From a virus (Duplodnaviria; Heunggongvirae; Uroviricota; Caudoviricetes), in IMG/VR virus record IMGVR_UViG_2526164665_000039: a stretch of 8,795 bases of DNA. One strand, given 5' to 3'. Every line of letters starts with the position of its first letter. The stretch's first letter is position 1. Shown one piece after another: positions 5,251 to 7,219 of the stretch. The position numbers were made by a program, and so were the translations under genes. The notes under the pieces were generated by a model. The model did not search any database and was not told where the DNA came from. It saw only the letters and a program-made list of their open reading frames with translations.

Positions 5251-5276
5251 ATCCCTGAAACCTCGGTTTACGGGAT
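5251..5276. repeat. Invertase crossover site next to the invertase gene (gix/pix-like)
   Basis: 26-bp site ATCCCTGAAACC TC GGTTTACGGGAT with half-sites that are 10/12 inverted repeats around a central TC. It is also one arm of a 28-bp inverted repeat (5263-5290) matching the reverse complement of 6663-6690 at 25/28. Confidence 0.55.
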
Positions 5277-5630
5277 ACGGTAAACAGGGCCGCGAATGCC
5301 CTGCCATCAAACGGTACGGCTGTTGCAGCAAGCAGGCTGGCAAATGCCCGCAGAATCAATGGTGTCGCCTTTGACGGCACGCAGGATATAAACATTACGT
5401 CAGGAATGCCGGAATCAACGGCCAATCAGCGTTATGTTACAGGGGTAAGACTGGGAGCGCAGGCATTAAGCGGCGGACTGGAATATAATTACTCCCTGTC
5501 ATCAGGAAATGTGATTACCGGTTTTAAGACTAACGGAGACTGGGAAATGCGTGGTGGTGATGACCGTGTTTATTACAGACAGATACAATATTGTATTAAT
5601 GGGCATTGGGTATCCGCTGCAAGTATTTAA
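5259..5630 (+). CDS. Alternative tail-fibre C-terminal variable cassette (S'v-like), no own start or promoter, currently silent
   Basis: The frame opens after a stop at 5256-5258 and reads NLGLRDTVNRAANALPSNGTAVAASRLANARRINGVAFDGTQDINITSGMPESTANQRYV... to the stop at 5628-5630. It is collinear and roughly 60 percent identical by eye to the C-terminal 125 aa of the expressed fibre (NVGLRETVNKAADALPSGGTAVAANRL...). Confidence 0.6.
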   Translation, partial: NLGLRDTVNRAANALPSNGTAVAASRLANARRINGVAFDGTQDINITSGMPESTANQRYVTGVRLGAQALSGGLEYNYSLSSGNVITGFKTNGDWEMRGGDDRVYYRQIQYCINGHWVSAASI

Positions 5631-5751
5631 TTAACGGGGGCATAGCACACAGCAGCCAGCATCTGAAATATGCGTTATTTCAGACAAGCATTGCCTGTAT
5701 ATGGCGATAGTATTATTCCTGTTTTTATCATTGATTTACATGGTGATGTTT

Positions 5752-6273
5752 ATGCAACTGATTAATGTCAAACGATATTACCCGAAAGACAAACCCTATG
5801 GTGAGGATGTTCAGTATTTCCAGAGTGAGGACGGAAGGGATTTTTATGAATCTATCCCGCTTTTCACAAAGAAATACAAACTCTGTATTTCGCCTGTAAC
5901 GGGTATTATCTGCTCTGTTGCTGAAGATGTCTCTGCTTTATATCCGGCAGGTTTTACTGTTGTTGAAGTGGACGAACTGCCGGAAGGTGTGAATATTGAC
6001 GGTAACTGGCAGTTTTCTGATGGCCTGATATCAAAGGTGCCGGTAAACTGGAAGACGGTTGCTGAAAAGCGTCGCTCATCGCTGCTCCAGGAAGCCAACG
6101 AAACCGTGGATGACTGGAAAACAGAATTAAAACTGGACATGATTAGCGATGAAAATAAATTACAGCTGACGCGCTGGATGGCGTATATCCGACAGCTTAA
6201 AGAAATGCACTTTAATGATATTGCCAGTGAGGGGCATTACCAGGCGATTCCCTGGCCGGAAAAACCGGAATAA
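5752..6273 (+). CDS. Tail fibre assembly protein (Tfa, Mu U / P2 gpG family)
   Basis: Product MQLINVKRYYP...IPWPEKPE has the N- and C-terminal signatures typical of Tfa chaperones. ATG at 5752 follows GGTGA; the ORF track's 5701 start adds a hydrophobic extension that is unlikely to be real. It lies immediately downstream of the S'v cassette on the same strand. Confidence 0.8.
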   Translation: MQLINVKRYYPKDKPYGEDVQYFQSEDGRDFYESIPLFTKKYKLCISPVTGIICSVAEDVSALYPAGFTVVEVDELPEGVNIDGNWQFSDGLISKVPVNWKTVAEKRRSSLLQEANETVDDWKTELKLDMISDENKLQLTRWMAYIRQLKEMHFNDIASEGHYQAIPWPEKPE

Positions 6274-6278
6274 TTCAG

Positions 6279-6303
6279 AGGGTGCATTCAGCACCCTTTT
6301 CTG
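6279..6303. terminator. Hairpin between convergent tfa and tail-fibre genes, bidirectional terminator candidate
   Basis: 7-bp stem AGGGTGC / GCACCCT with a 5-nt loop, followed by TTTTCTG on the plus strand. It lies between the tfa stop (6273) and the fibre stop (6308). Confidence 0.4.
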
Positions 6304-6307
6304 TGGT

Positions 6308-7219
6308 TTACACTGAACTTACCGTTCTCCAGGCATTATTAATATAAATCTGAACCGGGCGATAATAGACCCCACCGATATTGTCCGCAGACCGGGAGCC
6401 GGTTTCCTGCACGTTAATACCGGAAAGCATACAACCGGAAGGTGCGCTGTAATTCCATGATATTTCATTGCCTCCGGGTGAATGATAGCTCTGTGCTCCA
6501 AGCTGAACATTCTGTACATACCGGCCATCTGCGGTTGACTGCGTCATTCCTGACGTGATGTTGATATCCTGCGTTCCGTCAAAAGGAACGCCATTAATAT
6601 TTCTTGGGGTGGCGAGTCTGTTTGCTGCCACGGCGGTTCCACCCGATGGCAGGGCATCAGCAGCCTTATTTACCGTTTCCCGTAAACCGACGTTATCGAT
6701 AAAAGCGCCTTTATCCGGAATGTCTGCGCCGTTCTGCTCCCTGCGCAGGTAACGGTTATCACCTTCGCTCCTGCTGTAAACATCCAGATTATTACGGGCG
6801 GTTTCCGCATTCTCCAGGTCGGCAAGGTTCTGATCCTTCGCCAGGGCATTAACGTCAGCGGGACCAAGACTGTTTTTTGTGGCAAGCGTCCCCAGACCAA
6901 GATAACCACGGGCCAGACGCTGGGCTTCCGCACCGGCATCAGCAATTTCTTTCAGGTTGTTTTTCCGGGAAAAGGCATTCGCAGCGATAATGGCTTTAAT
7001 GGACAGCGTAAGCTGGTTTAACTGCGCCTTATCCGGCTGAATACTGGCTTCAGCCAGAATATTCAGCAGTTCGGCCTGGAGAATATTCAGCCAGTCCTGA
7101 CCAATCCAGCTGATACCTTTTTGTCCGTCACCTTCGGTAAACCAGGTGGTGGTATTACTCTGCGCCGGAGCCAGTTCAGGCATATTCGCCACGCCGGAAT
7201 TATTATCAACATGGAACAT
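6308..7219 (-). CDS. Phage tail fibre protein (constant N-terminal part plus currently expressed variable C-terminus)
   Basis: 303-aa product from the ATG at 7219, which overlaps the upstream gene's stop as TAATG and is preceded by GAGGAG. The ORF track's 7273 start lies inside the upstream gene. The C-terminal third is paralogous to the silent cassette at 5259-5630. Confidence 0.8.
   Translation of the reverse strand: MFHVDNNSGVANMPELAPAQSNTTTWFTEGDGQKGISWIGQDWLNILQAELLNILAEASIQPDKAQLNQLTLSIKAIIAANAFSRKNNLKEIADAGAEAQRLARGYLGLGTLATKNSLGPADVNALAKDQNLADLENAETARNNLDVYSRSEGDNRYLRREQNGADIPDKGAFIDNVGLRETVNKAADALPSGGTAVAANRLATPRNINGVPFDGTQDINITSGMTQSTADGRYVQNVQLGAQSYHSPGGNEISWNYSAPSGCMLSGINVQETGSRSADNIGGVYYRPVQIYINNAWRTVSSV
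6677..6702. repeat. Invertase crossover site inside the tail-fibre gene (gix/pix-like, inverted relative to 5251-5276)
   Basis: TTCCCGTAAACC GA CGTTATCGATAA. One half-site matches the reverse complement of the 5251-5276 site at 11/12. The central dinucleotide sits at the constant/variable boundary of the fibre (codons for IDNVGLRETV). Confidence 0.5.

Follow-up and report, generated by a model that had tools for sequence, protein, structure and literature searches.

Bacteriophage Mu encodes the constant N-terminus of its tail fibre outside an invertible stretch of DNA, the G segment, and the alternative C-termini inside it, in opposite orientation. Its invertase Gin belongs to a family of serine DNA invertases that also includes Pin of the Escherichia coli K-12 element e14, Cin of phage P1 and Hin of Salmonella. 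Here, we describe a tail-fibre inversion switch of this family in 8,795 nucleotides of viral DNA (IMG/VR record IMGVR_UViG_2526164665_000039; “the window” throughout), which forms the right-hand end of a Mu-like prophage of the Sp18 type in E. coli of the Shiga-toxin type, inserted near cobU. The switch is homologous to G/Gin of Mu, P/Pin of e14 and C/Cin of P1; it is of the textbook kind, real but ordinary. We consider it very probable that it is a working switch of the Mu G-segment type, in which a Gin-family invertase exchanges the C-terminus of the prophage tail fibre.

The window shares with Mu the gene order gp47, gp48, S, invertible segment, invertase, com and mom, the TC/GA core of the crossover sites and a crossover at the homologous position of the fibre, with a constant N-terminal part (Sc) outside the segment and two alternative C-termini (Sv, now expressed, and Sv', silent) inside it in opposite orientation. 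The tail-fibre assembly chaperone encoded in the segment, Tfa, is ~30% identical to U/U' of Mu. In contrast with Mu, the segment measures 1.43 kb rather than 3.06 kb, and the fibre has 303 or 298 residues, depending on orientation, rather than 504, the central ~240 residues of Mu S being missing. Furthermore, the segment holds a single chaperone gene, as against two each in Mu, in e14 and in a Morganella locus, both of its fibre tips are of the Mu S type while Mu has distinct S and S' types, and a gene for a 679-residue SASA-esterase/DUF6645 protein, together with small open reading frames (ORFs), lies between invertase and com.

The remaining systems resemble the window in part. In e14, as in the window, a short fibre gene follows a YmfQ/Gp48-like gene, but the e14 core is TT/AA, its segment of ~1.8 kb contains two tfa genes (tfaP and tfaE), and e14 is a cryptic remnant; no e14 fibre protein matched the window fibre or Tfa by BLASTP at E ≤ 1e-3. 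In the Salmonella Hin/hix and phage P1 Cin/cix systems, crossover takes place at 26-bp sites with a 2-bp core, and Fis binds an enhancer within the invertase gene; the window has sites and cores of this form and a presumed enhancer of this kind. The likeness to Cin is one of family mechanism rather than of direct comparison. Unlike the window invertase, Hin flips a promoter and not a coding cassette, and hin lies inside its own segment. Prophage Sp18 of E. coli Sakai is the same element with the same architecture, but its Sv' allele is different and 51 nt shorter, and its cores are TT/AA.

Crossover Sites and the Invertible Segment

A preliminary description of this DNA, made from its letters alone, reported a pair of 28-bp inverted repeats bracketing the segment. 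We obtained the same count, 25 of 28 positions being identical between 5263-5290 and the reverse complement of 6663-6690. The 28-bp repeat is the outer end of a 179-nt inverted repeat of 75% identity (5259-5437 / 6516-6694), the longest in the window, where all other inverted repeats are at most 24 nt long.

Both strands of the window were scored against the gix sites taken from the Mu record, TTATCCAAAACC TC GGTTTACAGGAA and TTCCTGTAAACC GA GGTTTTGGATAA. The best match, at 22 of 26 positions, is the fibre-gene site at 6677-6702 (TTCCCGTAAACC GA CGTTATCGATAA, with its GA core at 6689-6690), and the second best, at 19 of 26, is the invertase-proximal site at 5251-5276 (ATCCCTGAAACC TC GGTTTACGGGAT, with its TC core at 5263-5264); the TC/GA core of gix is conserved in both. 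The third-best match reached 16 of 26, while 100 Markov-1 random windows gave a mean maximum score of 16.1 and only two of them reached 19. Because the cores TC and GA are reverse-complementary, the two sites are inverted with respect to each other. The distance from core to core is 1428 bp, and the invertible segment between the core dinucleotides runs from 5265 to 6688.

The preliminary description had also assigned to each repeat a 26-bp site with two 12-bp half-sites around a 2-bp core. Both sites were found, but of each site the 28-bp repeat takes in no more than the core and inner half-site; the outer half-sites (5251-5262 and 6691-6702) lie beyond it, and their mutual resemblance is weak. 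The Min system of p15B has additional crossover sites; an arrangement of that kind was considered here and rejected because the third-best gix score equals random expectation. With only two sites, the switch is a simple two-state one.

Tail Fibre, Silent Cassette and Chaperone

The fibre is encoded on the minus strand by an ORF of 303 codons (7219->6308), which is crossed by the fibre-gene site in codon 177, the homologue of the G-segment boundary in Mu S. Residues 1-198, encoded largely by the constant part Sc (6691-7219, minus), are 48% identical to residues 1-191 of Mu S. The variable part Sv (6308-6690, minus) ends in a tip that is 41% identical to Mu S 437-503 and that aligns with Mu S 434-503 and with the short tail fibre of phage phiTE (9CUY). 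The whole fibre matched PHROG 1833 (6.9e-166); searches of Pfam and NCBIfam with the fibre returned no match, while the PHROGs and PDB sequence searches did. The claim that one site falls exactly at the constant/variable junction holds with respect to the Mu S boundary, but the sequence does not change abruptly there: the arms inside the two sites are ~75% identical over the first ~170 nt, and strong divergence is confined to the last ~75 codons.

The invertase-proximal site abuts, as had been proposed, a paralogous C-terminus. This silent alternative, Sv', is a start-less open frame at 5259-5630 on the plus strand (PHROG 1833 tail fibre, 1.4e-24), with a tip that shares 59% identity with residues 429-503 of Mu S. 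Inversion of 5265-6688 in silico joined Sv' to Sc in frame and produced a fibre of 298 residues, followed on the same strand by tfa and a hairpin, in agreement with the earlier suggestion that inversion fuses the constant N-terminus to an alternative C-terminus.

Two annotations touch on the silent cassette. An in-frame ATG lies at 5406, at the start of the tip domain, and the 67-residue equivalent in Sakai (5469-5672 of locus L006) is annotated as “tail fiber protein” ECs_4991. RefSeq places a 61-residue “hypothetical protein” at 5210-5395 on the minus strand; this call is antisense to Sv', spans the crossover site, alters in sequence on inversion and is probably spurious.

The chaperone gene tfa (5752-6273, plus, co-oriented with Sv') had been missed in the preliminary description. 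Its 173-residue product matches Caudo_TAP (2.4e-18), PHROG 136 (3e-57) and the structure of Mu U (5YVQ_B, 1e-15), and RefSeq labels it “tail fiber assembly protein”. It is the only Caudo_TAP gene; neither the segment nor the region following the invertase yielded a second chaperone gene, and the Mu-type provision of an own chaperone for each C-terminus is absent here. Downstream of Sv, the sole minus-strand ORF (98 amino acids) is antisense within tfa (5844-6140); it was judged spurious and left out of the domain scan. The stop codons of Sv and tfa are separated by 34 nt, and between these convergent ends lies a terminator-like hairpin (6277-6299, plus) with a 9-pair stem and a T run, a match by consensus only.

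Both Orientations among E. coli Genomes

A query of 2701 nt, in the window form and in the form inverted in silico, was compared with complete E. coli genomes at a minimum cover of 80%. The window orientation was found in 183 genomes and the flipped orientation in 26, four of the latter at 99% identity or above. The inverted window is collinear with the locus of strain AUSMDU00014361 over 5696 nt without a gap. In the four flipped loci that were fetched (strains Z869, AUSMDU00014361, FORC_044 and UTME-3; loci L002, L003, L041 and L042), the predicted hybrid sites were present exactly: ATCCCTGAAACC TC GGTTTACGGGAA on the invertase-proximal side and ATCCCGTAAACC GA CGTTATCGATAA in the fibre gene. 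In FORC_044, these junctions occur together with the Sakai-type Sv' allele. The crossover interval narrows to positions 5263-5275, a run of 13 identical bases on the outer margin of the 179-nt repeat.

The proteins give the same picture. An exact copy of the predicted fusion protein is present on 23 public contigs, as against 209 that encode the window fibre. In the Sakai-type pair, the flipped fusion protein was found on 153 contigs and the unflipped fibre on at least 1000. The occurrence of both orientations, which the preliminary description had put forward as a check, is thus seen among public assemblies with exactly the predicted junctions.

A further observation comes from draft genomes of other Enterobacterales. 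In ten of these (L007, L008, L010-L012, L014, L015, L018, L022 and L026), the contig breaks off between 66 and 188 bp upstream of the invertase start codon, in five of the ten at 73 bp. Breaks in this place, at or close to the crossover site, are expected if both orientations were present in the reads.

Core Variants and Cassette Alleles

Among the Sp18-type loci checked, 17 contain both sites. The cores are TC/GA in 15 of them and TT/AA in two (Sakai and one IMG/VR contig), and no locus has mismatched cores. The two TT/AA loci, Sakai Sp18 (L006; sites at 5302-5327 and 6677-6702) and L035, are in prophages ~98% identical to the window. Elsewhere, cores are likewise matched within each locus, being TC/GA in Mu and TT/AA in e14, in Enterobacter soli and in five Morganella loci. 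A paired change of cores between prophages of ~98% identity fits the core-matching rule for religation, and it recalls the localized conversion described for Cin.

The silent cassette exists in at least two alleles (window 5409-5751 versus 5460-5751 in L006), with 123 and 120 open-frame codons and the same tfa downstream. In two IMG/VR contigs (L038 and L039), tfa is only 70% identical, and this diverged tfa stands beside an Sv' that is 98% identical, while a single tfa allele pairs with differing Sv and Sv' alleles. Since one tfa is shared across alleles and a diverged tfa accompanies a near-identical Sv', the pairing of tip and tfa is loose. The cassettes are shuffled among Sp18-type prophages.

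The Invertase and Its Presumed Enhancer

The invertase gene (4636-5196, minus) encodes a serine DNA invertase of 186 residues of the Gin/Pin/Cin/Hin family, with Pfam matches to Resolvase (5.8e-51) and HTH_7 (1.7e-14). Residues 1-182 match the Gin crystal structures (PDB 3UJ3/4M6F) at E ~ 7e-91, and Mu Gin and PinE of e14 share 74.6% and 71.8% identity, respectively, with the protein, which agrees with the Gin-type system first proposed. The catalytic residues S9, R7, D64, R65 and R68 are all present (roles per PMC3798978). So are K46, R47, K50, Q150, R153 and L154, the residues of contact with Fis and the enhancer; in Hin, these contacts are made by K47, R48, K51, Q151, R154 and L155, which are reported to be conserved only in Fis/enhancer-dependent invertases (PMC3798978). 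Taken together, protein, sites and orientations show every testable defining feature of the Gin/Hin/Cin/Pin family.

The centre of the invertase-proximal site lies 67.5 bp from the invertase ATG, the same distance as in Mu, in e14 and in loci of Enterobacter soli and Dryocola (L009 and L018). By homology and by this spacing, we place a presumed Fis-dependent recombinational enhancer at 5112-5175 (nt 22-85 of the gene), within the 5' end of the invertase coding sequence; gene and presumed enhancer are outside the coordinates covered by the preliminary description. Nucleotides 22-41 and 70-83 of the gene are identical to Mu gin, and third-position identity to gin is 0.75 in codons 1-20 as against 0.25-0.6 elsewhere. 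Among 22 non-redundant invertase genes from eleven genera, the use of identical codons in same-residue pairs is 0.55-0.63 in codons 1-40 and ~0.41 elsewhere. The conserved gin-like blocks are centred ~97 and ~145 bp from the site centre. In Hin, the enhancer is ~100 bp from the site (PMC3798978), and the agreement of the nearer block with this distance is consistent with an enhancer, though short of proof. The coding sequence of gin itself is known to contain Fis sites (PMC3378877).

Mechanism and Alternative Explanations

We propose a mechanism in which invertase dimers would bind the two inverted 26-bp sites, assisted by host Fis bound to the enhancer in the first ~90 nt of the invertase gene. 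Both sites would then be cut exactly at the 2-bp core (TC / GA), half of the tetramer would rotate by 180 degrees, and religation would leave the 1.43-kb segment inverted. In the window orientation, the late tail operon reads Sc + Sv (303 residues), and in the inverted orientation, it reads Sc + Sv' (298 residues) and then the chaperone Tfa. The two fibres differ in their Mu-S-like tip domain and, by homology with Mu, would give the phage population two receptor specificities, so that host range may differ between the two states.

Several observations sit uneasily with a freely working switch. The ratio of orientations is ~9:1 in three independent counts and not the ~1:1 expected at equilibrium, a split that needs slow switching, founder effects or selection, and the evidence for two orientations is between assemblies rather than within one culture. 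The prevalent orientation, unlike that of Mu, places the only tfa antisense to the fibre operon. At the level of the DNA sites, the outer half of the fibre-gene site is degenerate (CGTTATCGATAA versus GGTTTTGGATAA in Mu). The presumed enhancer DNA also encodes the most conserved residues of the protein, and because of this overlap with a strongly conserved protein segment, the conservation of the enhancer is only partly independent evidence. Lastly, a threshold-based scan for sigma-70-like promoters of invertase and tfa detected none upstream of the invertase and one weak candidate upstream of tfa (5560-5589); with 7 matches where 4.7 were expected, the scan was uninformative.

The two orientations could also arise without the invertase, through RecA-dependent homologous recombination in the 179-nt repeat. 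Such a repeat is present, at 75% identity, and large prophage-borne repeats are known to invert E. coli O157 chromosomes (PMC7430833). However, in all four fetched flipped loci with an informative marker, the exchange took place within the outermost 13 identical bases, core included, and every discriminating base deeper in the repeat moves with the segment, while the co-variation of TC/GA and TT/AA cores is expected for site-specific and not for homologous exchange. An identity of 75%, with identical runs of no more than 13 nt, also makes the repeat a poor substrate for RecA. Homologous recombination was rejected as the cause of inversion, all informative natural junctions being in the 13 core-containing bases, and we give it next to no credence. 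It is only slightly less improbable, in our judgement, that the switch is a fossil, the flipped copies stemming from a few ancient events and the segment being inert in present-day lysogens. The skew of ~9:1, and a view that compares assemblies without read-level heterogeneity, would suit such a history, but the invertase ORF is intact with its catalytic and Fis-contact residues, and sites and cores are intact and matched. Moreover, flipped copies at least 99% identical to unflipped ones occur with two Sv' alleles and in different serotypes, and the short-read contigs of other species often end at the invertase-adjacent site, as mixed orientations predict.

A different question is whom the inversion serves. 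Besides or instead of altering host range, it might benefit the lysogen, if the fibre-derived product of one orientation blocked the adsorption of other phages. Invertases of the Gin family work in trans on one another's sites, several such invertases are present per genome of Shiga-toxin-producing E. coli (STEC), and 786 of 5426 genomes match the query region. A precedent has been reported in e14, where PinQ acts on the P segment (StfE2) and the inversion blocks phage T2 (PMC12529663). The present prophage, unlike the cryptic e14, looks both complete and mobile, its insertion sites varying by strain, and both of its orientations yield full-length fibres with the baseplate-binding N-terminus; we hold this explanation to be very unlikely as well. 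A working Gin-type switch of the tail fibre is by far the reading we favour.

If the switch works in this manner, it may be asymmetric. We offer only tentatively, as the less likely case, that tfa is co-transcribed with the fibre solely in the flipped orientation, such that inversion would toggle expression of the chaperone as well as the tip. Should this be true, and should lysogens inherit the orientation of the virion as in Mu, then the STEC-infecting Sv fibre would be made without a co-transcribed chaperone. Either the Sv tip would fold without Tfa, or tfa would have its own, orientation-independent promoter.

Prophage Context

Over bases 257-8795, the window shares 99.9% identity with a prophage of E. 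coli O157:H7 strain Z1813; with Sakai Sp18, the “Mu-like phage” of the Sakai genome, it shares 98.2% identity across 93% of its length. Bases 1-256 belong to the E. coli chromosome adjoining cobU, with the junction of prophage and host at ~257-261; this insertion site is unlike that in any complete E. coli genome searched. The Z1813 prophage is inserted in puuB and Sakai Sp18 in sorM, and the difference in insertion sites between strains indicates that the element transposes like Mu. Because the cobU-adjacent insertion was absent from all complete E. coli genomes searched, both orientations at the insertion site of the window were not found. Just inside the prophage end, TTTGATAC(C) motifs recur (285-307 / 320-342); these are candidates for the sites at which transposase binds the right end.

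The order of the minus-strand genes in the window is that of the right end of Mu. On one side of the switch are the Mu-like neighbours Mom (389-1126) and Com (1080-1325), together with the SASA-esterase/DUF6645 gene (2544-4536), and on the other side are Gp48/YmfQ (7219-7779) and baseplate J (7770-8765), all on the minus strand. Relative to Z1813, the window has four 1-base deletions (2496, 2564, 2913 and 2919), which break the 679-residue SASA-esterase/DUF6645 gene into ORFs of 567 and 118 residues; the gene is intact in Z1813 and in Sakai (ECs_4993). The split gene is either a real pseudogene or the result of homopolymer sequencing errors.

The genes of the switch have been annotated in Sakai since the genome was deposited, as DNA-invertase, tail fiber protein fragment, tail fiber assembly protein and phage tail fiber (ECs_4989-ECs_4992). 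Within the literature searched, we found no paper on inversion of the Sp18-type segment.

Implications

As a Gin/G-segment system of the textbook kind, the switch has little mechanistic import. It does explain a recurrent structural difference of 1.4 kb between STEC genomes that are otherwise near-identical, and the RefSeq entries “phage tail protein, incomplete, missing N-terminus” and “hypothetical protein” at this locus correspond to its silent cassette. With two core variants, at least two Sv' alleles and two tfa alleles, and with one chaperone per segment, these prophages form a natural series for the study of tip/chaperone specificity and of core conversion. The Mu-like phage that carries the switch continues to move between pathogenic strains of E. 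coli.

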